A stretch of 61,237 bases of DNA, filler included, from Sphacelaria rigidula (GCA_964200075.2; 5 parts of 5 records of this genome joined end to end with filler, not necessarily neighbours in it); one strand, 5' to 3'; positions 1-42,800 are shown, counted from the whole stretch's first letter. Program-made: numbers and translations. Notes: a model not told the origin generated them from the sequence alone.

Positions 1-129
1 GTATTTCTTCTTTTACTCCGCTCCTTCCGCGTTGAAGATTTCATATCTGCTCGGCTATCATCAGCGTAGAAACCCTCAAGTGAGGACGTCGAACGAGAGA
101 ATATTGTACAAAGCTGTCAAGAACGTGAG

Positions 130-221
130 TTGTGACGGTTTAAGAGATAACCAACTAGACTACTGACCGGTCAGCGCTGACCGGTCAGAAGTCTAGTTGG
201 TTATCTCTTAAACCGTCACAA
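130..221. repeat. 92-bp near-perfect palindrome (one mismatch) built from a tRNA-like 5' half
   Basis: ttgtgacggtttaagagataaccaactagac-ta-ctgaccggtcagc|gctgaccggtcag-aa-gtctagttggttatctcttaaaccgtcacaa. Centre is 175/176; the only mismatch is 162/189. Confidence 0.95.
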
Positions 222-252
222 AATTTAGCTGGTTCGATTCCCGTCGGACGCA
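183..252 (+). ncRNA. tRNA-derived (pseudo-tRNA / SINE head) Pol III-type sequence
   Basis: A-box-like AGTCTAGTTGGTTA (190-203), possible GTC anticodon loop (ccgtcac), and B-box GGTTCGATTCC (231-241). Stems pair poorly, so it is not called a functional tRNA. Confidence 0.55.
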
Positions 253-556
253 CTTTCTTCGAAGAAAAAAGAGGAGAGAAAGCCTCTGTAAAAATTTGGC
301 CCAAAGAAAAAGGGTGGGGTGTAGCCTGGTGGCTATGTTTGGAGTCTGCTGCTAAGGACCCCAGTGCACACACTCTGGAAATGCGTGGGGGAGACAAGGA
401 CCTCTACGGTACGATGAGAAGTGACGATACCAGAGGTTCTGACTGCAGTCGATAGAGCGCTGGCAAGGGGAGTCGCCCTCCTCGGAGTGAAAGCGAGGGG
501 GAGCAGACTACTGACCAGTCAAAGAGATAGCCAACTAGACTACTGACAACTCAGCG

Positions 557-1207
557 TCGACGTCAGGCGACTCCATTCGAGTCAACGGAGGATACAGGCT
601 ATTCAATATCCCCAAATTTAAGCGAGACCAGAAAGCGAAGAACGACCACACCCCAGAAACGGAGCGAGAAAAGACGAACTACATCTATGCGAGAGTGTCT
701 TCTGCCAAACAATCCGAGGACCTCAGGAGACAACCGAGAGACCTTGAGGCATCCTACCCTGGGTTTCAAGTACTATCTGACACGGGATCCGGGATCAACT
801 TCAAACGGAAAGGCTTCAAAAGGCTTCTTCAAGCGATCATGCGTGGACACGTCGGAATGGTTGTGGTATCCTACCGAGACAGGTTGTGCAGAATTGCTTT
901 TGACCTCCTCCAATTCATCTGTGACCAGCACCAGACTCAACTCTTGGTTCACAACAAGAACACGGAAGGATCCGACGAGAAGGAGCTCCTGGAGGACCTC
1001 ATGGCCATCACCCACGTTTTCAGTTCCAGGCTCTATTGAAAAAAATCAAGTCTCTCGGGGACACGCAATTCAAAAAAGCGCAAAGAACACGACAACGACC
1101 AAACTACTCATCACACAACTCAAGCTCATAATGATAAGCGGATGCGATCAGAATCTGGAGAAAGAAGTCCTTCAACAGATCTGCTGCAGGATGGACAAGC
1201 TCCGTGA
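557..1207 (+). pseudogene. tnpA: IS607-family TnpA serine recombinase, 5'-truncated, premature stop at 1037-1039
   Basis: The frame of ORF 695..1039 reads upstream as ...IRVNGGYRLF...YIYARVSSAKQSEDLRRQ (catalytic Ser motif plus remnant of the MerR-like wing). It continues with DTGSGINFKRKG, VVSYRDRL and EDLMAITHVFSSRLY*KKS, where the family consensus is LYG. No ATG was found upstream in the part of the frame read (539-695). The frame runs on to the next stop at 1205-1207. Confidence 0.88.
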
Positions 1208-2453
1208 ATTTCGAGAGTCAACAGGGGCTCTTTCTAAAACTCAGCCGAAGCAATTGGAAAGTCTCGAAGAGGCAATCCAGCTCTTCGAGTCGGGTGGGAC
1301 TATCGCAGAAGACTTGGTGGATCTACTCAAGCTACAGGAAGAACTGACAACGAACCTCGCGGAAAAAAACGTGACTACCGAAAAGCACGTGAAGAGAGCC
1401 AAGAGGATAAGAATCGTGCACGTAGATGCAAAGACAAAACAGACTCTCAGAAAGTACATGACCGCTTCGAGAAAGATTTTCAACACGGCATTGGACCTCC
1501 ATAACAAGGGTCTCCGGGGAGAAGAGCTGAGGAAGAAATGCGTGAGGGGTAAATTCATCCACGAAATGCTGAGAGGAATCCCGGAACATGTTCGTCAAAA
1601 AGCTTTCGACAAATTTTGTTCCTCGATGAAAAGCAGCGAGGAGCTAGGAGGCGCACTGTCTTTCATATCCAGGAACAAAAACGAATCATGGGTCGGTTTC
1701 CAGAAAAGGGATTGCAAGATCAAGGACGCTACCACGATAAACCTTGGTATCAGCTTGTCCGAGAAAGTAGATGACGATATACAGTGCGACATAGAGGTAA
1801 CTGAGTCTTTCGGAGTGTTCTACGCTACCATCACGCAAAACAGGGTTCATCTTCCTGAACTCCCCCCGGACATCTTGACGTCAAGGATTTGCGCTCTTGA
1901 CATGGGTGAGAGAACGTTCGGTACCCTGTACGATCCCGACGGTACGATAGCCTTTCTCGGCACGGATGTAAACTCCAAGATGAAGAATCGTCTGCGGGTT
2001 ATCTACAAGAAGAGGAAGGGTTTGAAGACTAAGCTCTCCTACAAGAAGAGATCCAGAGTCCTCCGTGCGTGTAGGAGAGCGTCTACAAAGTTGAAGAACA
2101 TGATCAAGGATATGCACCGTAGAGTCGCAGATTGGCTAGTTCTCAATCATGACGTTGTTTTGATCGGTAAGCTCGGTATTGGTGTAATGAAGTGTAAACG
2201 TAAGGGTAAGCGGGTTCTCCAGAGTCTATCCCACTACTCTTTCCGACGCACGCTTCTTCAAAAAGCTACCTTCGCAAGGAAAGTCGTACGGGTTGTTTCA
2301 GAAGCTTACACCACGAAGCAGTGTAATCGGTGCGGTTATATGAACTGGACCATCGGGCCCAGTGAAGTTTTTTCCTGTAAGAACTGCGGTACGGTATGTC
2401 ACAGAGATGTGCACTCCGGTCGTGGTATCTTCATAACGAGTTTGAGCGAGTGA
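1035..2453 (+). CDS. Fanzor2 / TnpB-like RNA-guided endonuclease (IS607-associated)
   Basis: N-terminal RAKRIRI...SRKIFNTAL; RuvC-I CALDMGERTF; Gly at the canonical RuvC-II position (VLIGKL) with alternative Glu in VSEAYTTKQC; Zn ribbon CNRC...CKNC; RuvC-III HRDVHSGRGI. The inferred ancestral start is 1035 (now ATT); in-frame ATGs at 1131 and 1191 remain. Confidence 0.92.
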   Translation: MEKNQVSRGHAIQKSAKNTTTTKLLITQLKLIMISGCDQNLEKEVLQQICCRMDKLREFRESTGALSKTQPKQLESLEEAIQLFESGGTIAEDLVDLLKLQEELTTNLAEKNVTTEKHVKRAKRIRIVHVDAKTKQTLRKYMTASRKIFNTALDLHNKGLRGEELRKKCVRGKFIHEMLRGIPEHVRQKAFDKFCSSMKSSEELGGALSFISRNKNESWVGFQKRDCKIKDATTINLGISLSEKVDDDIQCDIEVTESFGVFYATITQNRVHLPELPPDILTSRICALDMGERTFGTLYDPDGTIAFLGTDVNSKMKNRLRVIYKKRKGLKTKLSYKKRSRVLRACRRASTKLKNMIKDMHRRVADWLVLNHDVVLIGKLGIGVMKCKRKGKRVLQSLSHYSFRRTLLQKATFARKVVRVVSEAYTTKQCNRCGYMNWTIGPSEVFSCKNCGTVCHRDVHSGRGIFITSLSE

Positions 2454-2593
2454 CGTGGAAACTGCTCGGGAACAGGTTTTTCCCTTAAAAAATTTACCCT
2501 AATGGTAAGGAACAAGAGCTCAACTCTTGGATCAATTCTTGACATTTGCAGAGACTGAAAATTTCTCTTACAATGATACGGTATTGTGAACGG
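2454..2593 (+). ncRNA. Candidate Fanzor2 omegaRNA scaffold / IS607 right end
   Basis: Consecutive stems directly after the stop: gggaa/ttccc (2468-2484), ttacc/ggtaa (2494-2508), caagag/ctcttg (2513-2529), agaga/tctct (2550-2568), acaat/attgt (2570-2587). The position is the one expected for TnpB/Fanzor ncRNA; the 3' boundary is inferred. Confidence 0.6.
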
Positions 2594-2825
2594 TAGTGTG
2601 TGATTGTTAAGACCTAGAACCAGTGCCACCTGGAGTACACGATCAAAATGCGCGCGTCAGACATGTGCTGCGATTGTTTAGGCCGCGCCATCTGCATGTA
2701 CGCGGAGCTATTGTTTGGTCGAGAGCCCGATGTTGTCGATTTAGCGTGTTTGCCAGACGCAGGCTAGGCTCACGCGTCCTGCACGACAATCTTTGCACCA
2801 ATGCGCGCGTTTGCTGTTACAAAAA

Positions 2826-3767
2826 ATGTATAAACCACATATCAAGATATCTTCGACGCTTTTCGCTTCAGAAATCTCTGCATGCGTAGGTATGAACAAG
2901 TACAAGTCTGTCGAGGATGCTAAGATGGACGTTTGGAAGAGGTGGGACCCGCCATCGTTCCGCGAGGCATCTAAACGCAATTTCATCGTAGCACACAAAA
3001 CGCCCGAGGAAGTATTCGCTTCTATCGGACCCAGCGCCCAAAAACTTGTGTCTCGCGCTATTTCGTCGGAAACCGAAAAGGCAGCGACCGAAATTGTCGA
3101 GGTGGTCATCAACGAAAAAACCAACGATGTTGTTGCGCCTGAAGCCGTTCAAGCAATCTTGAAGGCCGCGTCGGATAAAAAGCCGGTCGACGAAGCCTGT
3201 CGCAAACTGGTTGGTGCGCCCAAGATTGCTGACACCCTGAATAAATCGCTGACCGCGGACTCAAGCGCCGCCGACGTCAAGCGCGTTATCGACAGTGTTT
3301 TGGTCAAGGATTTGGAAGAGGCCAGGGAGTCTGTCGTCCACCAAGTCAACACGATGCGCGGCACACAAAACGAGCACAAGGGCATCGCGTCGTACGAGAA
3401 AGCCAAGCGCGTCAAGCTGCATGGAAAAAATACACAATTTCACATTAAGCGCATCGGAGAGACCAGCACCAGAACCAAAGTGAACGTGGGGGGCAGAGTC
3501 GACGGATTGACTAATGACAAAGTCATTGAAGTGAAGTCTCGAAGGCATCGATTCTTTAGCACGCTCCCCCTATATGAAAAAGTGCAGGTTCAGGCCTACA
3601 TGTTTCTCACAGACAAACCCATTGCGGAGGTGGTGCAGAAATACGATGGAATGATGCGCTCGGACGAGTACGTGGCTGATACCGAGTTCTGGGCGGAGGT
3701 TTGTGCTGCGGCGCTCAAATTTGCGTCGGAACTAGAGAACTTGATTGATGCTCATCCGATTCCTTAA
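2826..3767 (+). CDS. YqaJ-like / lambda-exonuclease-type PD-(D/E)xK nuclease, NCLDV type
   Basis: FASEISACVGMNKY, RGTQNE, GGRVDG, IEVKSR and YEKVQVQAYM motifs; intron-less; ATG at 2826. Confidence 0.85.
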   Translation: MYKPHIKISSTLFASEISACVGMNKYKSVEDAKMDVWKRWDPPSFREASKRNFIVAHKTPEEVFASIGPSAQKLVSRAISSETEKAATEIVEVVINEKTNDVVAPEAVQAILKAASDKKPVDEACRKLVGAPKIADTLNKSLTADSSAADVKRVIDSVLVKDLEEARESVVHQVNTMRGTQNEHKGIASYEKAKRVKLHGKNTQFHIKRIGETSTRTKVNVGGRVDGLTNDKVIEVKSRRHRFFSTLPLYEKVQVQAYMFLTDKPIAEVVQKYDGMMRSDEYVADTEFWAEVCAAALKFASELENLIDAHPIP

Positions 3768-3824
3768 CTGGAAAGAATGAGCGTACACCAGACACACAGA
3801 CACACACACGCACACACATCCAAA

Positions 3825-4961
3825 ATGCTCGCCGACGTGAACATCGACCTCGTGACTACCTTTCTCTCCGATGCCAAGTCGATGGCTGGATTCGCGAGAG
3901 CGTCCCGACACTCAAAAGGTGTCGTCTACGCCAACATCCCGGCCGCTATCGAAAGAGCCAAACAGAACATGACCGAATACCAGAAAGAAACCCTATGCAA
4001 TCTCGGTCAGAACCCGGGCATCGAACACCTGAAGGCTATTGCCGAGCGCAAGTGCATCGCCTGTAGAAAGAGTTACAAGGGAGGAATTCGTGCGCCCTGG
4101 GGTATCCCCGCTCACCCGGACTGCACGAAGGGCCTTGAGGTTAACGTGTGGTACGTGAGCGCCGGGATTCCGACCGAGCTCATGCCTCTCGTCCGGTCGA
4201 CGATATCGGTCAATGTCAGAGATGGATACAGCTCGTACCACGGTCAGTACAGCTACGAGACAGTGATCCCCAGAGCCATCCCCGGCGTCATCCCGAACCA
4301 CATGACACTCGCGTACTTCCGAACGGGGCACGCCAACGAGGTCAACGCTTGGCTGGAGAGAGTTCGCCAAGAAAAACACGCTCAACAAGAGAAGCGCAAG
4401 CGAGCGGCATCGGAACAGAGGAACGCGCGCCAGAAGAAACAGAAGGTCGTAACCGAACAGAGGAGGGCATCGATCGAGGGCATCGTGAACACTTCGTATC
4501 TAAAGTGGATGCGCACAGTGCCGAAGAGCGCGAAGAAGTACGTGTCGAAACTTTCCGCGGAGGAAAGCGTGGCCGCGGTGGTCGTCGTCGGCAACAACGC
4601 AGATCTCTCCGAAGAGATACACGAGATAATGTTATCACCCGAGTATTTAAGGCCATGCACGGCAGAGTTGGAGGCGGCATACGCGTTGATTCGAAGAGTC
4701 GGAGATGAAGCGATAACTCTGCTTCGCCAACACCGCTCTTTTCGCGCCGTCCGCACGGCCATCGTCTCACGCGAAGAAGAAGAGCAGGTCAGGGAGGCCA
4801 GAGCCATGGTTCGAGAGGACAAGTACCCTCTGAAACAGCCCGGGGACACGGGAAGGATATGCCAATGTGGTCAGACGACCGCGCGTGATTGCGTTTTCAA
4901 CATGTGCTCCGGGTGTTGCCCGATGATAACGTGTGAGAGGCACTCGCGGGAGCGGTGGTAA
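3825..4961 (+). CDS. Viral-type hypothetical protein: F-box-like N-terminus, CxxC..H..C motif, basic coiled coil, C-terminal Cys-rich finger
   Basis: MLADVNIDLVTTFLSDAKSMAGFARASR is F-box-like; CIACRK...AHPDC; KRKR NLS-like stretch; C-terminal CQCGQTTARDCVFNMCSGCC...CERH. Confidence 0.7.
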   Translation: MLADVNIDLVTTFLSDAKSMAGFARASRHSKGVVYANIPAAIERAKQNMTEYQKETLCNLGQNPGIEHLKAIAERKCIACRKSYKGGIRAPWGIPAHPDCTKGLEVNVWYVSAGIPTELMPLVRSTISVNVRDGYSSYHGQYSYETVIPRAIPGVIPNHMTLAYFRTGHANEVNAWLERVRQEKHAQQEKRKRAASEQRNARQKKQKVVTEQRRASIEGIVNTSYLKWMRTVPKSAKKYVSKLSAEESVAAVVVVGNNADLSEEIHEIMLSPEYLRPCTAELEAAYALIRRVGDEAITLLRQHRSFRAVRTAIVSREEEEQVREARAMVREDKYPLKQPGDTGRICQCGQTTARDCVFNMCSGCCPMITCERHSRERW

Positions 4962-5065
4962 TCAAATGTTGAACAGAAACATTCTAACACGGAAACTTTT
5001 GAACGCATAAACGCGGGGCGCCCCGACACTTGGTTACGCCGGCACACACACACCTTCGATCGATC

Positions 5066-5380
5066 ATGAAACACTCAAGTGGAGGCGACGGGAGGTTTTC
5101 TGCGGCGGCGGCGATGGCTCTGGATGAGCGCGAGATGAAAGCCAAGCAACAAACCGAGCAACACGGTCAACACATCTTCCACCAAAAACACCTCGATGCG
5201 GAGCAAGCATTTCTGGACGGGCTCCTCCGCATGTATTTGGACCAAAAAGAACGCGTGGAGCAACTTCTCCCTGTTCGGCAACTGATGGAAAAGTTTTTAC
5301 TGGACGACAAGCATCAGGTTGAACAAATTAGGCTCGAGGAGCAAAGAAGGGAGTCGGAGTATCAGGATGGTAGAAAGTAG
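5066..5380 (+). CDS. Small hypothetical helical protein
   Basis: 104-aa ORF from ATG 5066, charged and helical in composition, co-oriented with the viral-type genes. Confidence 0.5.
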   Translation: MKHSSGGDGRFSAAAAMALDEREMKAKQQTEQHGQHIFHQKHLDAEQAFLDGLLRMYLDQKERVEQLLPVRQLMEKFLLDDKHQVEQIRLEEQRRESEYQDGRK

Positions 5381-5459
5381 CGCCGACTGACATTGTGGGC
5401 TCACTGCCGTCAACTTAGTGCAAGGCACGGAATTCGAACAGTGAAATACGAAAAAATCT

Positions 5460-7750
5460 CTAAAACCAATTCTGATCAAGCAAAAGTCCGAAACCACATA
5501 TACCGATGTTTGTCGATCCTATATCATCGCGATCCATCTCGAACTCTGATGTCAGAGGATGAAGTCTACAGGATTCTCCCGGAGATCCGACCTTAAAGTT
5601 TTTGCAACTCCGGATTCTCCGTTCTTTGTCCTCAACCGTATCCTCGAAACACCCCGGGCACTTCTTGGAAGTGTTGTGTTCGTCTACCATCAAAACGACA
5701 CCTCTGCTTGCCATCTCTCTGATCTTGGCTTTCCTTGGAGCCGACGCTCTTCCCTTCTTAGCAGAGAAGGACGCTTTACCGAACAACATGACCCTGCACG
5801 CCTCTCCTACATTTCCCATGTACTGATCGGCTATCTTAGCAAGTGTCTTCTGAGTAGCTCTGAAGCGTGAAAACCGCAAAATCTTTCGTTCCTTCTGTAG
5901 CGTCTCCTGAAAAACAACCGATCCATTTCTGGACCAGCTTTTGCAGTACTGGATGAACAAGGTGAGACAGGAAGTCCTTTTCTTGTTGTTCCTCAGACGA
6001 TCGATAGCTTCCCCGTATGACCGACCCCTCCTTCTGAAAGTCTCGTACTCGTCCGAACGCGATGCACGTGTGTCTCTACGGTAGTCGTCCCCGAACACAC
6101 AAGTCGAAGTTGACAGAATATCCTTCGGATCTTTCCTTGCCCAAACATCGGACATTGCCGAAGAAACGTTGATGACTTTGGCCTGTCCGGGGTCCGCGGG
6201 CATCACGACGAGATCTACCGGTATGCTAGCAGAAGTGGTGACGCTCGAAATATTGTACACGCCTCTCCCCTCTCTGAGTAGATCTTCCAACGGAACACCA
6301 GCCCGAGGCAACTTGTTGTACCCCGCATTGTTCAGCTCACTGGACCCGGGAGATGCCTTCCGTTTGTGTTCAAGGGTTAGAAGGAGTAGTTTGATCTGAA
6401 CACCGTCCGTCAAAAAGCTTTCGCCGACCATCCACGGGCATTTATCCGGACCATCTTCTAACAGACTCGACAGATACCCCTGTTCGTTCGACGCGTACTT
6501 GGTATTCTCCTCGCTCCTGAGGCACTTGATATTGGCCTCTTTCGAGAAGGGTTGAAGGACATTGTTGTACCACCAAGCATCATTGGAATGCCAAAACCCC
6601 CATGACTGGAGCGTTTTCACATCGATCCGGATGAAAACCGAACCCGTTGAACAGATGGGGAGCACGGCGGTGTCTTTCGGAGGGGCGTAAGTGTTCTCCT
6701 CTCCCAGTTCGTTGTTCATGTACTCGTATGTCTTCTTTCGGGACTCCCTGTCTTCACCGGGGGAGAACGAGTGAGCTCGAGACACGACCTCCTCGTACCT
6801 CCGTCGAGATTCAGCCACGTACGTTTTGAACATCCAGTTCAAATGTGTGATCTTCGGTACACACGCTTTGTCGGCGGAAACTCGATCGAAAACTCCCTCT
6901 CTTTTCGGGCAAACTCGATGATACAAGCGGTATCCGTGTCGGGGTCCACTTCCAGCGCCATTTTACGGACGTCCTCTTCTTTCTCGATCGTGCCGTCGAA
7001 GTCAACGATGATCTTCTTTGCAAGGCGGTAGAGTTTCGTCACGTACTTCTTGTACGCCAGATCTCCCCTGGACATCAATCCCCGCAGAAACCATCTCGTG
7101 ACCACGATCCTCCTCTTTTCGGTGTGGTGTTCAGCACGGGTTGATGTCGAGGTGGCCATAGAAATGGCCTCGTATCTTCGAACCTGAGAAAGACCGAGCT
7201 TTTTGGGTGGCTCAAGTCGTGCGAGTCCCATCAGCGCAGAAAAACGGTCGAAGTCCTCGTTGAGGCCCCCTCCGGCACTCTTGATGCATGATGACAAGCA
7301 AGAATTGTAAAAGTTCTCATCTGGCTCGGGGATGGTTGATCCATCTCGAAGGCGTTCCATGAACACGAAGTTTGCGAAAAGCGAGGCCAGCACTCTTTCC
7401 CTGGAAAAGTGATAGACCGCCTCGTCGACTTTCTTCTGGAAGGTGTAGCGGTTTTCATCTGCTGTTGCTGACTGGAAGCCAGCACTCACCGTCCTCGTTC
7501 GCAAAAGCTGAGAGACTTGTTCTCCGAATCGCACTTTAGAGAAGAGCCGGCAGCAGTTAGTGCCCTTGTACGTCCGAGGTAGATTCCCTGACGCGGGGAG
7601 GTACTTCCCGGGGTAGAGCCTTCCCACAGTTTGTAGAAAGTCCGGGATGGTCTTCGGGGATGTCTTCCTTGGTGTTGCCCTTTTCCGATTTTTCTTCTCG
7701 CGTGGATTTCCATCCGAAGATAGCTGTACTATGATGAATTGTGAGCTCAT
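5460..7750 (-). pseudogene. Fanzor1 RNA-guided endonuclease (~760 aa) split by one frameshift near 6890
   Basis: Overlapping ORFs 6839..7765 and 5460..6926. The C-terminal half has FLTDGVQI, RuvC-I ADPGQ, LFGKASF..KKGRASAP, VDEHNTSKKCPGC and RDDIGSTNI, all typical Fanzor1 motifs. Adding one T to the T4 run (plus-strand A4 at 6889-6892) fuses the frames. Confidence 0.88.
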
Positions 7751-7861
7751 GTGCGAGGTTTCCACGTCCCAAGTTTTGGGGAAACTTTGGTCATTCGTTT
7801 TCGGTTACAAGCTACGCGGAAGGATATGATTGGCCAGACTGGTGTGCGGGGTATGTGCGCG

Positions 7862-8968
7862 TCATCGACGAAAGAACAAATTCGTCGTGTCTGTAAAATC
7901 AGAGTTTAGGTGCCGACATTTCGGGGGTAAGTGACATGACCAACGGCTCTGCTTTGACTTCAACACTGGTTTAGAGTGAGACTTTGTCGAAACAATTTTG
8001 ACGTTGCGAAGGATGTGTGTCACGTACGTGTCAAGTGTGTAAATGTAAGATGGTTCCTTTATCTTTCTCTGTAACCGCAGCGTGATCGTGTCGAGCAGAA
8101 CTGTTGCCTCTACTTCCTGTATGTAGAGAGCAGGGGTTCTTGCGTGGGCTTTTTCAAGCTTGATGTTTGATTTAAGTCGTTTGAAACTCTCCTCCACTCG
8201 CCACCTCGTTGCGTACATGGCTTTCACGTCTTTGCGAGACAGCGACGGGTCATCCGTGAGGCAAACATACGTTTTTCCGTTTATGAAGTACTTCAAGAGA
8301 CGTGCCTTCACACCAGGTATAAGGCAGGTCGCTTCTGTTTTCCACGAGTTGAAGAAAGACCGGGTCCCCCGAAACGCGTTTATCTCCACCCTTTTCACAC
8401 CAAATGCTCGTGAATCGTTAACACTGCGTAGTAAAGCTTTGGAGTAGTAGCCCCGGTCAAACACCAATGTGTCAGCTTTCCGTACACTCCGAAGCATCGA
8501 CGCGGCTGCTCTTCTCTCGTTAAAGTGTTTCGTGAGCTCAAAGTCCACACAAGCTCTACTATTTACGTCCACCATCGAAGAGAGCATGACGAGAGGTCTT
8601 TTTGCAGGTCGCGGCACAGGCTTGTCGTTCGTTCTGGTCTTGTAACCAGCGCCGATGAAGGAAGGGTGAACATGTACCTTTGAACCATCCACGGCAAAAA
8701 CACGTGGTTCATGTGGTCCTCGGTGTAAAAAACGATTCACCTCCTTGAAAGCCCCCTGTGGAAGTTTCTTCCTGGCCAGGTGAACCGCCTGTGACGAATA
8801 TTGTTCATCATCCATTCTCATAATATGACCGACACCTCTCCCTTGAATACAGCACTTGATGATGGTGTAGAACAGGGAAGGCGTGTCTAGTTTGCGGCGC
8901 CTTTGTATCCATTGTTCGTCGCATTTTTTGAAGGCGTCATATATTTCGTCGTGAGTCGAGTAAGTCAT
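7862..8968 (-). CDS. IS4-family DDE transposase
   Basis: VFAVDGS (D), LVFDRGYYS (D), YATRWRVEESFKRLK (IS4 YREK signature); uninterrupted 368-aa ORF. Confidence 0.93.
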   Translation of the reverse strand: MTYSTHDEIYDAFKKCDEQWIQRRRKLDTPSLFYTIIKCCIQGRGVGHIMRMDDEQYSSQAVHLARKKLPQGAFKEVNRFLHRGPHEPRVFAVDGSKVHVHPSFIGAGYKTRTNDKPVPRPAKRPLVMLSSMVDVNSRACVDFELTKHFNERRAAASMLRSVRKADTLVFDRGYYSKALLRSVNDSRAFGVKRVEINAFRGTRSFFNSWKTEATCLIPGVKARLLKYFINGKTYVCLTDDPSLSRKDVKAMYATRWRVEESFKRLKSNIKLEKAHARTPALYIQEVEATVLLDTITLRLQRKIKEPSYIYTLDTYVTHILRNVKIVSTKSHSKPVLKSKQSRWSCHLPPKCRHLNSDFTDTTNLFFRR

Positions 8969-9219
8969 CTTCGACGTTTGTGTAAATAAATATATTAACT
9001 TTCCAAATTGCCTAACTTTACAACAATAAGTGACATGGGGAGAATAAATTCCACACGAAAATTGAGGATTCTGAGTCGACTATTTTCCTTTAACAACATT
9101 CCTTCCCGGGAAATCATTTGAAAAGTAATCTCAAAAAAGCTCAAAACGAATCCTTGACACCCCTTGCCGAGCAATCGTTTGAATTGTTGCGTCGAAATTT
9201 CCCATTATTTCTCGTAAAT

Positions 9220-9334
9220 ATCTTTGAACAGTCTTGAAACATAAACATCTTTGAACAGTCTTGAAACAGAAAGTTGTGGTAAAGATCCTCACTCAACCCT
9301 TGAAACTCAAATATCCTCACTCAACCCTTGAAAC
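9220..9334 (+). repeat. Two pairs of 22-bp direct repeats sharing CTTGAAAC
   Basis: atctttgaacagtcttgaaaca at 9220 and 9247; atcctcactcaacccttgaaac at 9285 and 9313. Confidence 0.85.
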
Positions 9335-9466
9335 AGCTGATTAAAGGGGTTTCCAAGGAGAATGGGGGGGCGTCGACTGAAAATATATCAAACGATTTTT
9401 CGGGAAGGGGCGAGAAAGATTAGGACACGGAATATGCAAGCGGAGAATAAGTTGAAATGCTCTAAA

Positions 9467-9775
9467 TTATTCATCGCCCCATGTCACAACCTGTTTCAAA
9501 ATATCCGGGGATGCAGGATTTTCCACAATTTTCGGCGGCCCATTTTCCGACACGCGAGAATAAAACATGTAGTGGATATTATTTCCACATGCCTTTGGAA
9601 CAAATCCTAGCTCCATCATGGAAAATAAATGTTTTTTTAAACGTATCACCCTTCGCTCCCAGGATGTAAATCTCTGCTCGTCACCGACGAAATAACTCCC
9701 ATTTGGACTGAAACGCAACCAGTAGATCGGCCGAGTGTGCCCCTCCAATCTCAAATATGCGTTGACATCTGTCAT
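9467..9775 (-). CDS. Hypothetical protein, possible WD40-like fragment
   Basis: 102-aa ATG-initiated ORF with LEGHTRPIYWLRFSPNGSYF, resembling one WD40 repeat. Confidence 0.4.
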   Translation of the reverse strand: MTDVNAYLRLEGHTRPIYWLRFSPNGSYFVGDEQRFTSWERRVIRLKKHLFSMMELGFVPKACGNNIHYMFYSRVSENGPPKIVENPASPDILKQVVTWGDE

Positions 9776-10077
9776 GCGACTCGATTCACACGTTCTTGTG
9801 TAGCTGGGATGTTGGTGGACATATTCACCTACCTCCAGCAGTAGAACATGATTTCACGTCCATAACTACAATATCAACCTTTGAATATACTCTGCTGGTG
9901 TCTGTCAGCCAACCATCCCGAGAAGCAGGCATGATGACGCTCGTGGCAACAGTAAGTGCCCCAATTTTTTATCTCCGCTGCTACGCGAGATTCGATCGAC
10001 AGATGGGGATGCTCTTTGGCGACGTGGTGTCGAAGTGCCTTATCACCCACAGAGACTACATGACACCGGCTTTGGGG

Positions 10078-10726
10078 TCAGAATAGGCCTTCGTCGCATG
10101 CATTTGTACGTCGCTCAAGATCTTGTAATCTTTGTGGCATCGAACTCCATTCAATGACCGGACTAGACAATTCCTCCTCGGAACTGGAACTGGAATCGAC
10201 AACGATTGGTTGTTTCGCAACAGGCTCTTCGTCCGAAGTATCATAGTGTATCTATCTGCACGTGTTTGTGTAACTCTGCACGATTAGGGAAGCCATCTCC
10301 ACGATAGCTACAACGGTAGATGGGGGCATCGCTCGTTCCTAAAGCACTATCTGAAGCGCTCACACATGCGTCACTTACACTATGTTCTGTCGCGCTGCCG
10401 ATGTTGGAGGACGTACCAGTTTCATTTGTAAGGGGGGTATCGCGCAAAGATTGAATTGGTTCGTCAAATATTGGACGGGTGCTGCTCCACATATCATCGT
10501 CAGGGGAATCACGTGTATGGTGTACCCTTTTTCGTTTTGGCCGGGGTATCTCCTCACGTTTGAGACAACGTTGCCGAAGCTCTCGCTTTCTTACCGCCCA
10601 AGGCCTATTACCAACGACTTCGTCACAACGCGCGTTATCTGAGGTATCATCGTCATGCACTTGCATATGTCTCTTGGACTCTGTATGATCGGTAAAGTTG
10701 CTTCCACATAGGTAACAATGGTACAT
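10078..10726 (-). pseudogene. Double C2H2 zinc-finger protein, frameshifted
   Basis: YHCYLCGSNFTDHTESKRHMQVH plus a second copy YRCSYRGDGFPNRAELHKHVQI(H). A 4-bp duplication (tatc x2, 10249-10256) breaks the frame. Removing it gives HVQIHYDTSD (compare HMQVHDDDTSD) and an acidic tail to the stop at 10078. Confidence 0.7.
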
Positions 10727-12169
10727 GGGAGCATCACTCGAATCCGACAAACTTAATGTATGTGTCACTTTCAGCAATCTGCTGCGTCGGTGGTTTCGGC
10801 CGGCGGCTCTCACGTAGCTGTTGTTTCCGGCGTCGCTGGCGCGACCGCAGCTCCTGGAAAATGGGGTTTGTTTCCAAAAGACTGAGCTGTTCCTCGGCAG
10901 TTTGTTCCGAAAAAGCACTGTAAGCGCGCAAGTGAGAGAGCTTTTGGCACAGTGCCGCCTCTGAATAGCCGTTCATTCGTCGCGCTCTGTGCCATTGGGA
11001 AAGATAGGCCCGTCGCTCGGTTCCAGCTCTGCGTCGCTTGTCAGATACATGTCGCATTGGCCCTCGCTGGATACGTAGTCAGAAAGGGATTGGATGTGTG
11101 GCCTTGTCACTGTTTATTTATATAGAAACAAAATATTCCTTGCATTTACTACTTCGTCAATCAAAAGCAATGGCGAGGCTGGTCGTCTGGGTCGGCAGCA
11201 TCAACAAAATCTGAAATGTTGCCAGTAAAAAGAAAAGAGGAAGGAGAAAATTACCGAGACTAGCAGTACGTTTTAGCGGCACGCTGGGGCACGCGTTACC
11301 CCTTCAAAAGAGGTGTCCAACATCGGCAATATTGCCGACATGAGGAAGTCGAAAGCTATGTGTGCGAGCCGTGTAAAAGAGCTGGCAGGGTCGGTCATCT
11401 AGATGACCTTATTGATCGCTCGATGGAGGCGGCTGGGGAGACGGTTTGTGACGTGCGAGACAAAATGTAGAGTTGATTCGTGATCGAACTCGATAAATAA
11501 ATCTGCATGCGCTATGCGAAGCTCGGGTGCGCGTCGTCATCCCTGAAACACGGCACACAATTATTGCACCTCGGACGCGGTGAAGACCTTTTTCATCAAG
11601 ACGTCATTTCGCCTCAGCGTGTTGCCTAAGCACGCTTGGCGCGCTTGGTCCGAGGCCAATGCATTTCTGTGTCCTGGCTCGTCCAGCATTCATCGTTTTC
11701 GCACTTCATGTACACGTTACGTCTACGTCTCTTCCTCCACACGCTTGACGATCTGAATCATTCCCGTGACAGCTGAAGCAAACCCTTCAGGCTTCAAATT
11801 ACACCGCGCTGCTGCGGGGGATTTTGCCATGGAGGGGGGCTGGGGGGGTGTTGAGGAAAATTCCCGCGGTGACCCTTGAAACTGATTCTAAACAAAGGTG
11901 TTGGAGAAATCAGGCCTAATTAGTAACTTATCCATACACCTTTGATTCAAAATGTACGTATTTCGACATCATGTGCACGGCCAGCTGTGCCGGTAGGGGT
12001 AGAGTGGGGTCGCCGGGTCTCCCCTAGTGGAGGGGCACGTCTTTCTTTTGTTGCAGAAGATGCCTAGCCTCGGCTCTTGCTTAATTTTTGAAAACATCCC
12101 GCCTGTGGCGAAATCACGCCTTCACGGTTGAGTATATAGTGGATCCTGGATGATGACCAGGGGACAAGG

Positions 12170-12269
12170 NNNNNNNNNNNNNNNNNNNNNNNNNNNNNNN
12201 NNNNNNNNNNNNNTTAATTAATTAANNNNNNNNNNNNNNNNNNNNNNNNNNNNNNNNNNNNNNNNNNNN
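12170..12269. other. Artificial contig linker (N + TTAATTAATTAA + N)
   Basis: 100-nt spacer with a six-frame stop; identical spacers at 24438, 36705 and 48972. Confidence 0.98.
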
Positions 12270-13792
12270 CGTTGCGTGGTATGATTGGACAAACCTTACC
12301 CAAACGCCTTATTATGAGAAGCCCCGACGAAGAGGAAAACATGGAAACAGAATAGGCCGACGGCAACCACTTTCATAATGGAAGCCCGGAGAAGAATGTC
12401 CTCTCTGGGGAATTTGGGTAAGGTTTGTCCAATCATACCACGCAACGGATGAAGTGTGTCCAATGATATCCATCGACAATAATCAGCAAAACCACTATGA
12501 AACATTCCATTAAAAAAATAGCAATGGGCTCCAGGGTCCAACCTGGCACGTTTGTATATTAGCATTTGTACATAAGGGAAGCACCGCTTTGACGGGCTGC
12601 AGCATCGGGTGGCGAGTTTGCCAAGCCACACCGTACATACAGAACAGTATGGCTGAACCCAGCAAAATCCCGTCACCACACGTGGAAGACACAGTGGGTT
12701 GTGCGGGCGGTACATGGCGGGTGTAATCGCAGGCGTCCGAACAGGCGATATACATGTACACGGGAGGGAGCCGACGGACACCGCCTACCGTAATCAGGCC
12801 ACATGAAACATACAACAGTCAGTAAATACAGTAGGTTACAGGATTGACTTGCGGCTACAATGCGTGCAAGATAAATATGGGCATGTCGTGAAAAATCGGC
12901 CACAAGAGTAGACGGCACGAGACGATAGCGGTAGCCGGTGTCATGAATCTCATGCAGCATGAAGTATGTCTATACAACGATCGGGAACGATCAACCCGCG
13001 GCGGTATAGATGTGGTGGGGTAACTGTGCCTTTCGCTACGCCATTGTGGAATAGTCAGCCCGAAGTATGATGTTGCCGGCCCGTACTTGGCAGAGCGCAG
13101 TTCTGTGCATGCCCCGCGTTATACAGAGATATTTTCAAAATACAATATAGACATGACACGAAGAAGTAAGGTATCATCCCCGGGGCGACGGCACTTGGCA
13201 GACTCTACACCACAGTGACGGTGCATAACTGCAGGGCACATGGCGTCTGCGTCACCTTTACCCATTTTTCAAAGGGCGGGATGGTGCTGTCGGAACGTGC
13301 ATGAGCGCGATGTTGTGCATGACGTGAGTCTGCAGTCGAGATTACCCCAAACTGCTGTAAACACACCCAGTACTGTACAGGGCAGTGTCGCAGCACCCCC
13401 GGCGGCACGGAAAGGTGACTGCCTGGGATTGTATACCGCCACTTCGTACATTTAGCGAATGTGCCATCGGCGTTGCCCTTGTTGCTATGACACTGCAAAG
13501 AGTATAAACTGCAGAGGGCAGGGCGTGCAGGTCAGGCCGGCAGCATGCTTCACAGAGGCCTGCCGCGCACTGTGGCCGAGCAAGGACCTCATGAGTGTAG
13601 AAAAAAAAGCCGGCAGATCGCAGCAAGAAAATAAGAAACCTTCTCTTGTTCCACTTGTCACTCGTACGGGTCTGAAAAATGCGCGTTTGGCCAAAATTGT
13701 TGCGTCTAAGCTATGAACCATCAACCATATCTTGCTCTAAAACCGTCAATTGCAAATGATCAATTTTCCATTGTGAGTTCCAAAAGGGTTAA
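12270..13792. mobile_element. Dispersed non-autonomous DNA element ending ...AAAGGG|TTAA (piggyBac-like end), interrupted by a ~1.07-kb insert
   Basis: About 12300-12555 and 13630-13792 match the contiguous stretch ~50775-51222 in piece 5; both end caaaagggttaa. Confidence 0.6.
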
Positions 13793-36804: not shown

Positions 36805-39800
36805 TATCTCTGCTCTCTATTTGTGACACATACAGTACGAACTACTTGCCACAAGTCAACAACCGGCTGTATTTCTTCCGCCGGAGGAGAGGTGAACATC
36901 GATCGTGTCGGACATCAGGTGTCGGAGGTCGGGACACGAGGGCCGAGCGTCGACCCCTGGCGCGTAACTCTGCTCTTCATCGGAGCGTTGACCCCTGGCA
37001 CGTAACTCTGCTCTCTATCCGTGAGACATCCAGCAGAAATTACTTGCCACAAGTCAACAACCGGCTGTATTTCTTCCGCCGGAGGAGAGGTGAACATCGA
37101 TCGTGTCGGACTTCAGGTGTCGGAGGTCGGGACACGAGGGCCGAGCGTTGACCCCTGGCCATAACTCTGCTCTTCATCGGAGCAATGACCCCTGGCACGT
37201 ATCTCTGCTCTCTATCCGTGATACATACAGCAGAAATTACTTGCCACAAGTCAACAACAGGCTGTATTTCTCCGCCGGAGGAGAGGTGAACATCGATCGT
37301 GTCGGACATCAGCTGTCGGGGTTCGGGACACGAGAGGCGCGCGTTGACCCCTGGCGAGTAACTCTGCCCTCTATCCGTCATACATACAGTACGAATCACT
37401 TGCACATCAGCTGTCGGCGGTCGGGGCACGAGGGTCGAGCGTTGACCCCTGACAAGTATCTCTGCTCTCTATCTGTGATACATACAGTACGAAATACTCG
37501 CCAGAGGTCAACAACCGGCTGTATGTCTTCCGCCGGAGAAGAGGTGAACATCGGTCGTGTCGGACGTCAGGTGTCGGAGGTCGGGGCACCAGAACCGAGC
37601 GTTGACCCCTGGCAAGTAACTCTGCTCTCTTATCGTGATACAAACAGTACGAATCACTTGCCACAGGTCAACAACCGGTTGTATGTCTTCCGCCGGAGGA
37701 GAGGTGAACGTCGATCGTGTCGGACATCAGGTGTCGGCGGTCGGGGCAACAGGGCCGAGCGTTGACCCCTGGCATGGACCTTCGATCTCTATACGTGATA
37801 CATACAGTACGAATCCCTTCCCACAGGTCAACAACCGGCTGTATGTCTTCCGCCCGAGGGGAGGTGAACATCGATCGTGTCGGATATCGGGTGTCGGAGG
37901 TCGGGGCACCAGGGCCGAGCGTTGACCCCTGGCACGTATCTCTGCTCTCTGTCCGTGATACATACAGTACGAATCACTTGCCACAGGTCAGAACCCGGGT
38001 GTTTGTCTGCCGCCCGAGGTGAGGTGAACATCGATCGTGTCGGACGCCAGGTGTCCGAGATCGGGGCACCAGGGCCGAGCGTTGACCCCTGGCACGTATC
38101 TCTGCTCTCCATCCGTGATACATACAGCCGAAATTACTTGCCACAGGTCAACAACCGGCTGTATGTCTTCCGCCGAAGGGGAGGTGAACATCGATCGTGT
38201 CGGACGTGAGGTGTCGGCGGTCGGGGCACGAGGACCGAGCGTTGACCTCTGGCACGCATCTCTGCTCTCTATTCGTGATACATACCGTACAAACTACTTG
38301 TCACAGGTCAACAACCGGCTGTATGTCTTCCGCCGAAGGAAAGGTCAACATCGATCGTGTCGGACATAAGGTGTCGGAGGTCGGGGCACCAGGGCCGAGC
38401 GTTGACCCCTGGCACATAACACTGCTCTCTATCCGTCATACATACAGTACGAATTGCTTGCTACAGGTCAACAACCGGCTGTATGTCTTCCGCCGGAGGG
38501 GAGGTGAACATCGATCGTGTCGGACACCAGGTGTCGGAGGTCAGGGCACGAGAACCGAACGTTGACCCCTGGCACGCAACCCTGCTCTCTATTCGTGATA
38601 CATACAGTACGAATTGCTTGCCACCGGTCAACAACCGGCCGTATTTCTCCCGCCGGAAGGAGTGAAAATCGATCGTGTCGGATATCAGGTGTCGGAGGTC
38701 GGGGCACCAAGGCCAAGCGTTAACCCCTGGCACGTATGTGTGCTCTCTTTTCGTGTTACATACAGTACGAATCACTTGCCACAGGTCAACAACCGGCTGT
38801 ATGTCTTCCGCCGGAGGAGAGCTTAACATGGATCGTGTCGGACATCACGTGCCCGAGGTCGGGGCACGAGGACCGAGCGATGACCCCTGCCAAGTAACTC
38901 TGCTCTCCGTCCGTGATACATAGAGTACGAATCATTTGCCACAGGTCAACAACCGGTTGTATGTCTTTAGCCGGAGGATAGGTGAACATCGATCGTGTCG
39001 GACATCAGGTGTCGGAAGTCGGGGCACGAGGGCCGAGCGATGACCCCTGGCAAGTATCTCTGCTCTTTATCCGAGCGTTGACACCCGGCATGAAACTTTG
39101 ATCTCTATCCGTGATACATACAGTACGAATCCCTTCCCACAGGTCAACAACCGGCTGTATGTCTTCCGCCCGAGGAGAGGTGAACATCGATCGTGTCGGA
39201 CATCAGGTGTCCGAGGTCGGGGCACCAGGGCCGAGCGTTGACCCCTGGCACGTATCTCTGCTCTCCATCCGTCATACATACAGTACGAATCATTTGCCAC
39301 AGGTCAACAACCGGCTGTATGTCTTCAGCCGGAGGAGAGGTGAACATCGATCGTGTCGGACGTCAGGTGTCAGAGGTCGGGGCACGAGGACCGAGCGTTG
39401 ACCCGTGGCACGCAACTCTGCTCTCTATTCGTGATACATACAGTACGAATTACTTGCCACAGGTCAACAACCGGCTGTATGTCTTCCGCCGGAGGGAAGG
39501 TGAATAACGATCGTGTCGGACATCACGTGTCGGAGGTCGGGGCAACAGGGCCGAGCGTTGACCCCTGGCACGTATCTCTACTCTCTATTCGTGAAACATG
39601 CAGTACGAATTACTTGCCACAGGTCAACAACCGGCTGTATGTCTCCCGCCGGAGGAGAGGTGAACATCGATCGTCTCGGACACCAGGTGTCGGAGGTCGG
39701 GGCACGAGGTCCGAGCGATGACCCCTGGCAAGTATCTCTGCTCTCTATCCGAGCGTTGACACCTGGCATGGAAGTTCGATCTCTTTCCGTGATACATACA

Positions 39801-42800
39801 GTACGAATCCCTTCCCACAGGTTAACAACCGGCTGTTTGTCTCCCGCCGGAGGGGAGGTGAACATCGATCGTCTCGGACATCAGGTGTCGGAGGTCGGGG
39901 CACGAGGACCGACCGTTGACCCCTGGCACGCAACTCTGCTCTCTATTCGTGATACATACAGCAGAAAATACTTGCCACAGGTAAACAACCGGCTGTATGT
40001 CTTCAGCCGGGGGAGAGGTGAACATCGATCGTGTCGGACATCAGGTGTCGGAGGTCGGGGCACGAGGACCGAGCGTTGACCCCTGGCACGCAACTCTGCT
40101 CTCTATTCGTGATACATACAGCATATATTACTTGCCAGAGGTCAACAACCGGCTGTATGTCTTCAGCCGGGGGAGAGGTAAACATGGATCGTGTCGGACA
40201 TCAGGTTCCGGAGGTCGAGGCACGAGGAACGAGCGTTAACCCCTGGCACGCAATCCCGCTCTCCATCCGTGATACATACAGTACGAATCCCTTCCCACAG
40301 GTCAACAACCGGCTGTATGTCTTCCGCCGGAGGGGAGGTGAACATCGATCGTGTCGGACATCAGGTGTCGGAGGTCGAGGCACGAGAAACGAGCGTTGAC
40401 CCCTGACACGTATCTCTGCTCTTCATCCGTGTTACATACAGTACAAATTACTTGCCACAGGTCAACAACCGGCTGTATGTTTTCCGCCGGAGGAAAGGTG
40501 AACATCGATCGTGTCGGACATTAGGTGTCGGCGGTCGGGGCACCAGGGCCGAGCGTTGACCCCTGGCACGCAACTCTGCTCTCTATCCGTTGTACATACA
40601 GTAGAAATTACTTGCCACAGGTCAACAACCGGCTGTATGTCTCCCGCCGGAGGAGAGGTGAACACGGATCGTGTCGGACATCCAGTGTCGGAGGTCGGGG
40701 CACCAGGAACGAGCGTTGACCCCTGGCAAGTAACTCTGCTCTCCGTCCGTGATACATAGAGTACGAATCACTTGCCACAGGTCAACAACCGGTTGTATGT
40801 CTTCCGCCGGAGGAGAGGTGAACATGGATCGTCTCGGACATCAGGTGTCGGAGGTCGGGGCACGAGGGCCGAGCGATGACCCCTGGCAAGTATCTCTGCT
40901 CTCTATCCGAGCGTTGACACCTGGCATGAAACTTTGATCTCTATCCGTGATACATACAGTACGAATCCCTTCCCGCAGGTCAACAACCGGCTGTATGTCT
41001 TTCGCCGGGGGAGAGGTGAACATCGATCGTTTCGGACATCAGGTGTCGGAGGTCGGGGCACGACGACCGAGCGTTGACCCCTGGCACGCAACTTTGCTCT
41101 CTATTCGTGATACATACAGCAGAAAATACTTGCCACAGGTCAACAACCGGCGGTATGTCTCCAGCCGAAGGAGAGGTGAACATCGATCGTGTCGGACATC
41201 AGGTGTCGGAGATCGGGGCACGAGGACCGAGCGTTGACCCCTGGCACGCAACTCTGCTCTCTATTCGTGATACATACAGCACAAATTACATGCCACAGGT
41301 CAACAACCGGTTGTATGTCTTCCGCCGAAGGGAAGGTGAACATCGGTCGTGTCGGACGTCAGGTGTCGGAGGTCGGGGCACGAGGAACGAGCGTTGACCA
41401 CTGGCAAGTAACTCTGCTCTCTATCCGTGATATAGTACGGATCATTCACCACAGGTCAACAACCGGTTTTATGTCTTCCGCCGGAGGAGAGGTAAACATC
41501 GATCGTGTCGGACATCAGGTGTCGGCGGTCGGGGCACGAGGTCCGAGCGTTGACACCTGGCATGGAACTTCGATCTCTATCCGTGATACATACAGTACGA
41601 ATCCCTCCCCACAGGTAAACAACCGGATGTATGTCTTCCGCCGGGGGAGAGGTAAACATCGATCGCGTCGGACATCAGTTGTCGGAGATCGGGGCACGAG
41701 GACCGAGCGTTGACCCCTGGCACGCAACTCTGCTCTCTATTCGTGATACATACAGCAGAAATTACTTGCCACAGGTCTACAACCTGCTGTATGTCTTCAG
41801 CCGGGGGAGAGGCGAACATCGATCGTGTCGGACATCAGCTGTCGGGGGTCGGGGCACAAGGACCGAGCGTTGACCCCTGGCACGCAACTCTGCTCTCTAT
41901 TCGTGATACATACAGCACAAATTACTTGCCAGAGGTCAACAACCGGCTGTATGTCTTCCGCCGGAGGAGAGGTGAACATCGGTCGTGTCGGACATCAGGT
42001 TTCGGAGGTCGGGGCACCAGGAACGAGCGTTGACCACTCGCAAGTAACTCTGCTCTCTATCCGTGATACGGTACGAATCACTTGCCACAGGTCAACAACC
42101 GGTTGTATGTCTTCCGCCGGAGGAGAGGTGAACATCGATCGTGTCGGACATCAGGTGTCGGCGGTCGGGGCAACAGGGCCGAGCGTTGACCCCTGGCATG
42201 AAACTTTGATCTCCATCCGTGATACATACAGCACGAATCCCTTCCTACAGGTCAACAACCGGCTGTATGTCTTCCGCCCGAGGAGAGGTGAACATCGATC
42301 GTGTCGGACATTAGGTGTCGGAGGTTGGGGCACCAGGGCCGAGCGTTGACCCCTGGCACGTATCTCTGCTCTCTGTCCGTGATACATACAGTACGAACTG
42401 CTTGCCACAGGTCAACAACCCGCTGTATGTCTTCCGCCGGAGGAGAGGTGAACATCGATCGTGTCGGACATCAGTTGTCGGAGGTCGGGGCACGAGAACC
42501 GAGCGTCGACCCCTGGCACGCAACCCTGCTCTCTATCCGTGATACATACAGTACGAATCATTTGCCACAGGTCAACAACCGGCTGTATGTCTTCCGCCGG
42601 AGAAGAGGTGAACATCGATCGTGCCGGACTTCAGGTGTCGGAGGTCGGGGCACGAGGACCGAGCGTTAACCCCTGGCACGTAACTCTGCTCTCCATCCGT
42701 CATACATACAGTACGAATTACTTGCCACAGGTCAACAACCGGCTGTATGTCTTCCGCCGGAGGGGAGGTGAACATCGATCGTGTCGGACATCAGGTGTCG

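Follow-up and report, generated by a model that had tools for sequence, protein, structure and literature searches.

Two damaged Fanzor-bearing transposons face each other in a probable giant-virus-derived island of a brown-alga-type genome

Positions 557-9028 of a 61,237-base stretch of Sphacelaria rigidula DNA (hereafter the window, meaning the whole stretch that was analyzed) hold two transposons, one of the IS607 type and one of the IS4 type, each with a gene for a Fanzor-type nuclease and each pointing at the other across three open reading frames (ORFs). The question raised by this locus is whether the two nucleases and the genes between them form a working unit or are two elements that came to rest in the same piece of DNA, and what that piece of DNA is. 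Our answer, to which we give a probability of about 0.78, is that 557-9028 is a single-copy island derived from a giant virus with phaeovirus affinity, lying in a nuclear genome of the brown-alga type, into which two unrelated and now damaged transposons were inserted independently. The convergent orientation is most simply chance, no sign was found at the locus that the arrangement exceeds two independent insertions, and it is likely that neither element is mobile there. The original prediction had placed a serine recombinase with a Fanzor2 on the plus strand and a DDE transposase with a Fanzor1 on the minus strand, their right ends facing; all of these parts were recovered in ORF and Pfam analyses, and the right ends do face each other, at ~2625 (IS607) and ~5394-5404 (IS4).

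The island, its transposons and the genes between them

The window is made up of five contigs of ~12.17 kb each with N spacers between them, and the island falls entirely within the first piece (1-12169, a contig of 12,169 base pairs (bp)). It is bounded on the left by an ultra-high-copy, host-type repeat array (1-556, unstranded), which truncates the left end of the IS607 element. Depth was estimated by placing on the window the contigs and unitigs assembled from four runs in two studies. The summed contig depth was ~1e5 in the bins spanning 1-812 versus 12-65 for unique DNA, and both ends of the contig (1-560 and 11775-12169) were repeats with a depth of ~1e5 in all four runs. The depth of 813-5278 was the same as that of 9339-11774 (~12, 62 and 17 in the three main runs, which cover both studies), and the IS4 part was present at ~3-times the depth of its flanks.

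These data also bear on whether the first piece is an assembly chimera, in which either the repeated IS4 element or the high-copy repeat served to join unrelated fragments. Such a join could be sought in the interior of the IS4 element, which is spanned by no single contig (the unitigs of three runs break at 5427 and start again at 8998 (X2) or 8951 (X4)) and of which about three diverged copies exist. However, the two unique flanks were equal in depth in three runs, and contigs from two studies, error-free or near-identical, cross each of the junctions at 557, ~5400 and 9028: run contigs bridge 557, enter the IS4 right end, stopping at 5427, and cross 9028. In addition, a candidate target duplication around the IS4 element, matching at 7 of 8 positions, fits one insertion at one site, and we consider a chimera very unlikely.

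The IS4 element (5394-9028, minus strand), a transposon of the cut-and-paste kind, carries a Fanzor1 and is of the ISvEsV1_1/ESv-2 type. Its left end was set at 9028 and its right end at 5394-5404 based on the match to viral copies and on alignments of the ends. Sister copies of the kind anticipated in phaeovirus-type DNA were indeed found, as two whole elements (3,615 bp, 99.6% identical to each other) on a phaeovirus-type viral contig of 335,593 bp, and blastn of the window element to L001 gave 76.2% identity over 1034 nucleotides (nt) for the transposase and 73.8% over 2309 nt for the Fanzor, with the match beginning one base inside the common left boundary of the viral copies. The left terminal repeat is homologous to that of the viral copies and the right one is degenerate; a de novo inverted-repeat search of the window gave no IS4 terminal pair. 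The candidate 8-bp target duplication mentioned above consists of 9029-9036 and 5386-5393 (chance ~0.01 over 26 offsets), and no target duplication was seen by eye around the two viral copies.

Within this element the DDE transposase gene (7862-8968, minus strand) is intact and encodes 368 amino acids (aa) of the IS4 family (Pfam DDE_Tnp_1, 1.4e-17; NCBIfam transpos_IS4_1, 3.1e-28, at 98.8 bits and thus below the cut-off of 115); its match to the viral copy extends over 356 aa at 76% identity. The Fanzor1 gene is represented by two minus-strand ORFs, one of 308 aa for the N-terminal part (6839-7765) and one of 488 aa for the C-terminal part (5460-6926; Pfam TNB, weak at 6.7e-04), which overlap at 6839-6926 and are halves of one gene as judged by alignment to homologues; a one-letter frame break near 6884-6887 deprives the assembled copy of a single reading frame. 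Forty-one homologues of the 488-aa ORF were identified, most of the near-complete matches being single ORFs of 746-797 aa, and 14 of the 41 were named as brown alga or phaeovirus (Pylaiella 7, Ectocarpus 5, Laminaria 1 and FirrV-1-M1 1, the FirrV-1-M1 protein being 74% identical to the Fanzor1-type ORF). Consistent with Fanzor1 homology, residues 14-488 were 75-76% identical to the two viral-contig copies.

Supporting this assignment were RuvC-I (ADPGQ, 6197-6183) and RuvC-III (MDRDD, 5537-5523) motifs, FGKAS at the canonical glutamate site (5783-5769) and an alternative glutamate with zinc finger, DEHNTSKKCPGC (5684-5649), the glutamate lying in DEHNTS. Judged from these residues, as placed by alignment, the protein has both the DPG and the alternative glutamate that mark Fanzors in the cited passages of PMC10711439. 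It also fits the published Fanzor1 pattern D-X(125,275)-[TS][TS]-X-X-C4 zinc finger-X(5,50)-RD (PMC3627910, in the part that defines the motif): in the 488-aa ORF the aspartate of ADPGQ is residue 245, TS stands at 419-420 in NTSKKCPGC, the C..C..C..C arrangement is present and MDRDD is at 464. Searches of the PDB by sequence, whether with the ORF or with a profile, gave no match. For the fold, an AlphaFold model of P0033 was used, a full-length homologue of 762 aa and 82% identity with a predicted local distance difference test score (pLDDT) of 83.4; its top seven PDB matches were SpuFz, GtFz and PpFz (2.4e-14 to 1.2e-12), followed by Cas12h at 7.5e-07.

Where the frame breaks, contigs with a one-letter difference in length occurred in all four runs, and the error-free contig X5 (6676-6896) agreed with the window version; both versions exist. 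Each of the four runs also had a contig, ~10% diverged, in which 5709 is connected to 8478 through 12 other letters; it is an internal-deletion derivative of the IS4 element and its Fanzor1 elsewhere in the genome.

The IS607 element begins, abruptly, with the remnant of a serine recombinase gene, tnpA (557-1039, plus strand; Pfam Resolvase, 6.5e-14 on 695-1039), which retains the catalytic motif YARVSS at 686-703. Because the host repeat cuts off the left end of the element, the tnpA start codon and nearly all of the helix-turn-helix (HTH) were lost, and with only the tail of the HTH present this is not a complete IS607. Two relatives, L003 and L005, carry intact TnpA, and alignment with these showed that ~32 N-terminal and 45-70 C-terminal residues are absent from the remnant. 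DNA homology to L005, the closest intact relative (86%), starts only at 568, and L005 has 95 nt more of coding sequence upstream of the matching point; the missing left part was not found upstream of the repeat, 1-130 being without homology to L005. At the other end a premature stop at 1037-1039 removes the further 45-70 residues, with a basic tail, that TnpA of L003 and L005 possess. A single base difference from L005 at 1037-1039 both creates this stop and changes to Ile a conserved internal Met (MEKDQ in homologues) of the overlapping nuclease frame. That frame, of Fanzor2-like (TnpB-family) type, is open for 631 codons plus a stop (558-2453, plus strand), reads the tnpA remnant in its +1 frame and retains its catalytic residues; its native start is lost, and in-frame ATGs are at 687 and 1131.

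Three plus-strand ORFs lie between the right ends. The first (2793-3767) encodes a YqaJ / PD-(D/E)XK-type nuclease of the giant-virus type (Pfam YqaJ, 3.8e-05, 24.4 bits with a cut-off of 22). Translation probably begins at the ATG at 2826, and alignments to its 1344 relatives (E<=1e-3) begin at query residue 20-23. In the ESM Atlas it scored 0.97-0.98 to Nucleocytoviricota YqaJ/PDDEXK clusters, and the look-alike clusters were 84-100% viral, for the most part Nucleocytoviricota. Its nearest named relative, 77% identical, is from Ectocarpus sp. 12. In that alga a homologue of the Fanzor1 (74%) and the YqaJ-like homologue (77%), P0050 and P0076, are each reported from a contig of 52,265 bp, which hints at the same neighborhood in another alga. 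The second ORF (3777-4961; 394 aa, Cys-rich C-terminus) belongs to no known family, Pfam being silent for it even at E<=10 and NCBIfam giving no family; its best ESM Atlas score was 0.90. An F-box label considered for this ORF was rejected, its sole basis being a language-model lead of 0.89 to F-box clusters with no Pfam support. The third (5030-5380; 116 aa) has no family and ends just outside the IS4 right end. The original prediction had described these as three viral-type genes, YqaJ-like, F-box-like and small. The YqaJ-like and small ORFs are there as described, but the F-box-like identity fell away, a viral-type family is supported for just one of the three, and a functional link among them was not shown by anything in the analysis.

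Could the island then be something other than virus-derived, with the IS4 element and its Fanzor1 and the IS607 remnant being algal residents and the three ORFs host or mobile-element genes? Some of the evidence leans this way, and the same points count against a viral origin. None of the giant-virus or phaeovirus core genes is on the 12-kb contig; the phaeovirus link that had been proposed holds for the IS4 element (74-76% DNA identity to viral copies, 74% protein identity to FirrV-1-M1). Only the IS4 element matches the viral contig (blastn to L001), two scans of viral_contigs gave no close relative of the YqaJ-like gene or of the 394-aa ORF, and the nearest named relative of the former is annotated in an alga, not a virus; the description of the island as virus-derived rests on the mobile elements and one nuclease gene. 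Moreover, if the 8-bp duplication is real, the DNA to the right of 9028, which is host-like in having few ORFs and a weak WD40-like fragment, was once contiguous with the three genes. Three further points detract from the reading that we favor in other ways. That the 335,593-bp viral contig is EsV-1 is something that we infer. The frame break may belong to another IS4 copy and not to this locus, since the interior of the element is unspanned and same-run contigs differ there by one letter in length. Lastly, the Fanzor2-like frame may not be dead, because no stop has accrued in its 631 codons.

Nevertheless, a non-viral island is unlikely in our judgment. The IS4 element is confined to integrated viruses and absent elsewhere in the Ectocarpus genome, according to the cited passages of PMC13236599, the clusters resembling the YqaJ-like protein are predominantly viral at the percentages given above, and the ORFs are long and intron-free on a contig that is otherwise ORF-poor. 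That the YqaJ-like and Fanzor1 homologues of Ectocarpus sp. 12 are reported from a contig of the same length also counts against it.

The DNA around the island was characterized as well. In the left repeat are a perfect-type palindrome of 46 nt at 130-221 and a pair of inverted arms, 40 nt each, at 170-209 and 522-561. It contains a tRNA-T-arm-like sequence, GGTTCGATTCC; no tRNA gene was found in the repeat by ARAGORN, and Rfam gave no family at E<=0.1 in 1-12500 nor at the gathering score across the whole window. Outside the IS4 left end is a 102-aa ORF (9467-9775, minus strand) with a weak WD40-repeat match (E 0.002, below the cut-off), which may be a host exon. In another piece, the guanine-plus-cytosine content (GC) is uniform at 0.56 across 37000-43000 of the window, a segment in which 41189-41713 and 41825-42349 are ORFs of equal length (174 aa).

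The Fanzor2-like nuclease and the candidate omega-RNA

The assignment of the IS607 nuclease as Fanzor2-like was based on both sequence and fold. The ORF 687-2453 matched Pfam Cas12f1-like_TNB (2.7e-13) and NCBIfam guided_TnpB (3.9e-25; 89 bits, below the cut-off of 100), with ordered protein from ~1035 and the canonical TnpB core from ~1404. The best PDB match by sequence was the mimivirus Fanzor2 9b0l_P (1.3e-18; next chain 1.8e-07), and the same chain was best by fold when a model of the 631-residue frame was searched (3.9e-18, with ISDra2 TnpB at 9.2e-15). In the AlphaFold2 model, residues 1-161 had a pLDDT below 50 except for 88-103 (with a short helix at 93-103), and block means from ~residue 165 onward were mostly 75-94. 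The best matches in BFVD were giant-virus 'transposases', one of them from Feldmannia species virus. Membership in Fanzor2 is in keeping with a TnpB-type core (WED, REC, RuvC and zinc finger) that is closest to a solved Fanzor2 and with location in an IS607-type element with a serine recombinase, the TnpA remnant being upstream and overlapping. Both nuclease types in the original prediction, Fanzor2 here and Fanzor1 in the IS4 element, were accordingly correct.

The RuvC-I motif of the frame is ALDMG (1893-1907) and the RuvC-III motif is HRDVH (2400-2414). IGKLG occupies the canonical glutamate site (2163-2177), and an alternative RuvC-II glutamate, which is invariant, is present in the SEAYTTKQC of the zinc finger region SEAYTTKQC..CKNCG (2298-2390). 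The frame therefore has the alternative glutamate, but at RuvC-I it reads ALDMG and not the DPG set out in the passages of PMC10711439 cited above. L-D-M-G was invariant in all 17 sequences of alignment A2 and DMG was also found in L006, whereas more distant relatives with a recognizable RuvC-I motif mostly had, in that context, ALDPG or something close to it. The surrounding context is homologous, and DMG thus looks like a change from P to M that is specific to this clade.

None of the 31 homologues of the protein, nor the 29 obtained with a profile of alignment A2, has a name in NCBI or UniRef; the profile search added no homologue that was new or named. Against viral_contigs the protein itself gave no match and alignment A2 gave just one distant locus, L083. 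All 23 loci found among prokaryotic relatives were cyanobacterial, at 23-32% identity. In a quick tree of 80 rows, among which named Fanzor2 proteins were not included, the clade of the window protein (15 rows) was monophyletic (100) on a stem of 1.49 and separate from the cyanobacterial clades. Its sister, with weak support (84), was a metagenomic DPGEK group that has no name.

The right end of the element was located by homology with L004, which runs 172 nt past the Fanzor2-like stop and ends after AACCAGTG at 2625. The resulting conserved, non-coding tail (2454-2625, plus strand, 172 nt) is a candidate omega-RNA scaffold. Two blocks in it were identical at 52/62 and 39/46 positions, compared with 72% across the whole 1223-nt match to L004. 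In a consensus fold, built from two full sequences only, the 3' end of the ORF pairs with the terminal block in a long-range stem, with one compensatory pair in the stem and three in the whole fold; the energy z-score of the single-sequence fold was only -1.65, which is not distinctive. The candidate scaffold probably starts inside the 3' end of the ORF, at ~2412. In the IS4 element the Fanzor1 stop is ~60 nt from the right end, and the fold z-score of that interval was -0.03, giving no signal.

By analogy with TnpB and Fanzor biology, the transposase would move its element, a transcript that covers the right end and the 3' end of the nuclease gene would be processed to omega-RNA, the guide would be taken from the DNA just past the right end, and the nuclease would cut guide-matching sites beside a target-adjacent motif, which would favor retention or copying of the element. 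On the same analogy the guides would start at ~2626 (plus strand) for the IS607 element and at ~5393 (minus strand) for the IS4 element. As both right ends face each other, guides beyond them would come from the DNA between, as the original prediction had proposed.

Geometry of this kind invites the proposal that the two nucleases work together with the three intervening genes as their target, for instance in guided protection or mobilization of a cassette. The proposal has the geometry alone in its favor, with both right ends, and so both presumed guide sources, facing the same 2.8-kb stretch. Convergence is, however, one of four equally likely arrangements of two elements, and both elements are damaged. 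The same runs also show the IS4 element at further sites, as its ~3x depth and a deletion derivative indicate, and the closest IS607 relatives, L003-L005, are on contigs with different flanks. We regard a functional pair as scarcely credible and prefer two independent insertions. Nor does the locus supply two reconstructable nuclease and omega-RNA pairs, as had been hoped: the IS607 copy lacks its left end and both native starts, and in the assembled copy a frame break interrupts Fanzor1.

A recombinase gene nested in an extended nuclease frame

The overlap of the Fanzor2-like frame with tnpA is not confined to the window. In L003 and L005 the nuclease frame opens with an ATG that lies 10 nt past that of tnpA, and it covers the whole of tnpA in the +1 frame; the same nesting was found in L006 (33% identity), and nine database homologues of the protein are 634-676 aa long. 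Nested loci comprised the window (558-1130), L003, L005, L006, L007-L048, L089-L105 and L107. The overlap of tnpA and tnpB was at least 468 nt in 30 of the 32 loci in which both genes were recognized, cyanobacterial genomes included, the exceptions being L052 (391 nt) and L070 (genes not adjacent).

To evaluate the openness of the +1 frame, stop codons were counted in 24 tnpA genes, 23 of them distinct, and compared with synonymous-codon permutations; the rows are related and so are not independent. Outside this main test were L006 (tested separately, with the window), L026, L039, L052, L058, L070, L089, L093 and L095. The +1 frame over tnpA had 0-1 stops in 22 of the 23 distinct genes, where 1.1-7.5 were expected, and the depletion was significant at P<=0.013 in 21 of 23. 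The +2 frame was depleted of stops only in the GC-rich L013. In most of the genes tested the ATG of the extended frame was 7 or 10 nt downstream of that of tnpA. By comparison, all six IS607 controls from other bacterial groups had 5-24 stops in the +1 frame and no depletion, and their tnpB-tnpA overlaps were just 4-38 nt. One control, L114 from an Acidiphilium plasmid, has tnpB in the +2 frame, with 1 stop versus 5.5 expected (P 0.007, GC 0.62), and may represent another frame extension that arose independently. A different route to one start for both proteins is seen in P0025, a metagenomic relative of 683 aa and 41% identity, in which HTH, resolvase and TnpB are fused in one frame.

A further locus, on a Trichormus plasmid (L107, 1380-3228), has a broken tnpA with a stop at the catalytic motif, and the long frame there is open for 553 aa; the RefSeq annotation at this locus gives a 402-aa TnpB only. 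Over the TnpA catalytic domain, substitutions in the extension follow the TnpA frame, and from ~1035 on they follow the nuclease frame. Conservation of extension residues is not independent evidence of function, as it mirrors conserved TnpA motifs. The residues of the extension evolve fast and are predicted to be disordered, the latter counting against a folded domain, and together these two features fit a translated leader better than a folded domain.

The extension may be translated and may have a role. If it is translated, a single 5' start region would give both proteins, through dual starts in bacteria and leaky scanning in eukaryotes. Taken jointly, these observations allow the tentative suggestion, for which we judge the odds to be somewhat below even, that the IS607 lineage from which Fanzors arose, extending from cyanobacterial TnpBs of the DPG type to the eukaryote-borne clade of the window, nests tnpA in an extended tnpB, and that this monocistronic layout let this TnpB lineage alone succeed in eukaryotes and their viruses. 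No description of the nested layout was found in the articles searched.

Known relatives of both elements and significance

Both element types are already known from brown algae or their viruses, and the view that these systems were probably uncharacterized did not survive comparison with the literature. Bao and Jurka described the IS4 element with a Fanzor1 in 2013 as ESv-2, which is ISvEsV1_1 of EsV-1, and as ESvi-1B in an integrated Ectocarpus siliculosus virus, the family having 18-bp terminal repeats and an 8-bp target duplication (PMC3627910, in its account of these elements). A 2026 study noted IS4 elements with Fanzor1 as polymorphic insertions, in integrated viruses only, in its passages on the subject (PMC13236599). 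The window element resembles ISvEsV1_1/ESv-2 in the order of DDE transposase and Fanzor1, in its identity to the copies on the 335,593-bp contig (74-76% for DNA and 76% for protein), in a homologous left terminal repeat, and in a candidate duplication of the 8-bp length seen in the family. It differs in its broken Fanzor1 frame and degenerate right repeat and in that one side abuts host-like DNA.

For the IS607 element, the best solved match by sequence and fold is the Fanzor2 of the Acanthamoeba polyphaga mimivirus IS607 (PDB 9b0l; Jiang et al. 2023, PMC10530073). Both are linked with a serine recombinase of IS607 and have a non-coding tail, beyond the ORF, that is conserved up to the right end; in the alignment they also share IGKL at the canonical glutamate site and a glutamate before a TTK..C zinc finger. 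However, identity is 21%, the window has DMG and not DPG, and it has an extra helical N-terminal region of ~110 residues as well as a frame overlapping tnpA. The TnpBs of cyanobacterial IS607 elements are like the window protein in the ALD(P/M)G..RT context, the NE.YTSK.C motif and the nesting of tnpA in the tnpB frame, and are unlike it in that the window clade has DMG, sits apart on a long stem in the quick tree and is found in eukaryote-type DNA. Based on their DPG, their alternative glutamate and their taxon, we infer that the cyanobacterial loci would correspond to the 'pro-Fanzors' of Yoon et al. 2023, as these appear in the cited passages (PMC10711439).

Closer in host is the IS607-like copy that Gilbert and Cordaux reported in 2013 next to an integrated EsV-1 in Ectocarpus siliculosus (PMC3673617). 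From its description there, it agrees with the window element in having both ORFs, with ~590 aa matched, and in lying in a brown alga beside virus-derived DNA. Unlike our account of the window, that report, in the passages on this copy, does not treat ORFB as a nuclease nor describe nested frames. A TnpB fold is also present in a phaeovirus, in the 'putative transposase' B5LW91 of Feldmannia species virus (BFVD; 1.3e-20, template-modeling score 0.73, target-normalized), and so TnpB-type genes in phaeoviruses are not new; unlike the window protein, B5LW91 has 408 aa and, at 23% identity, is of a different lineage.

In view of these precedents the locus itself adds little, being a decayed virus-derived piece in which neither copy is fit for reconstruction. 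More novel are the unnamed DMG-type clade of Fanzor2-like proteins and the lineage-wide nested frame. The former combines the DMG variant with the extra helical N-terminal region, and its intact members, such as L003, are candidate compact nucleases for testing. The latter touches on a question that Yoon et al. 2023 raise in the passages cited here (PMC10711439), namely why one TnpB lineage adapted to eukaryotes: if the nested layout has the role suggested above, it would bear on why it was this lineage that did so.

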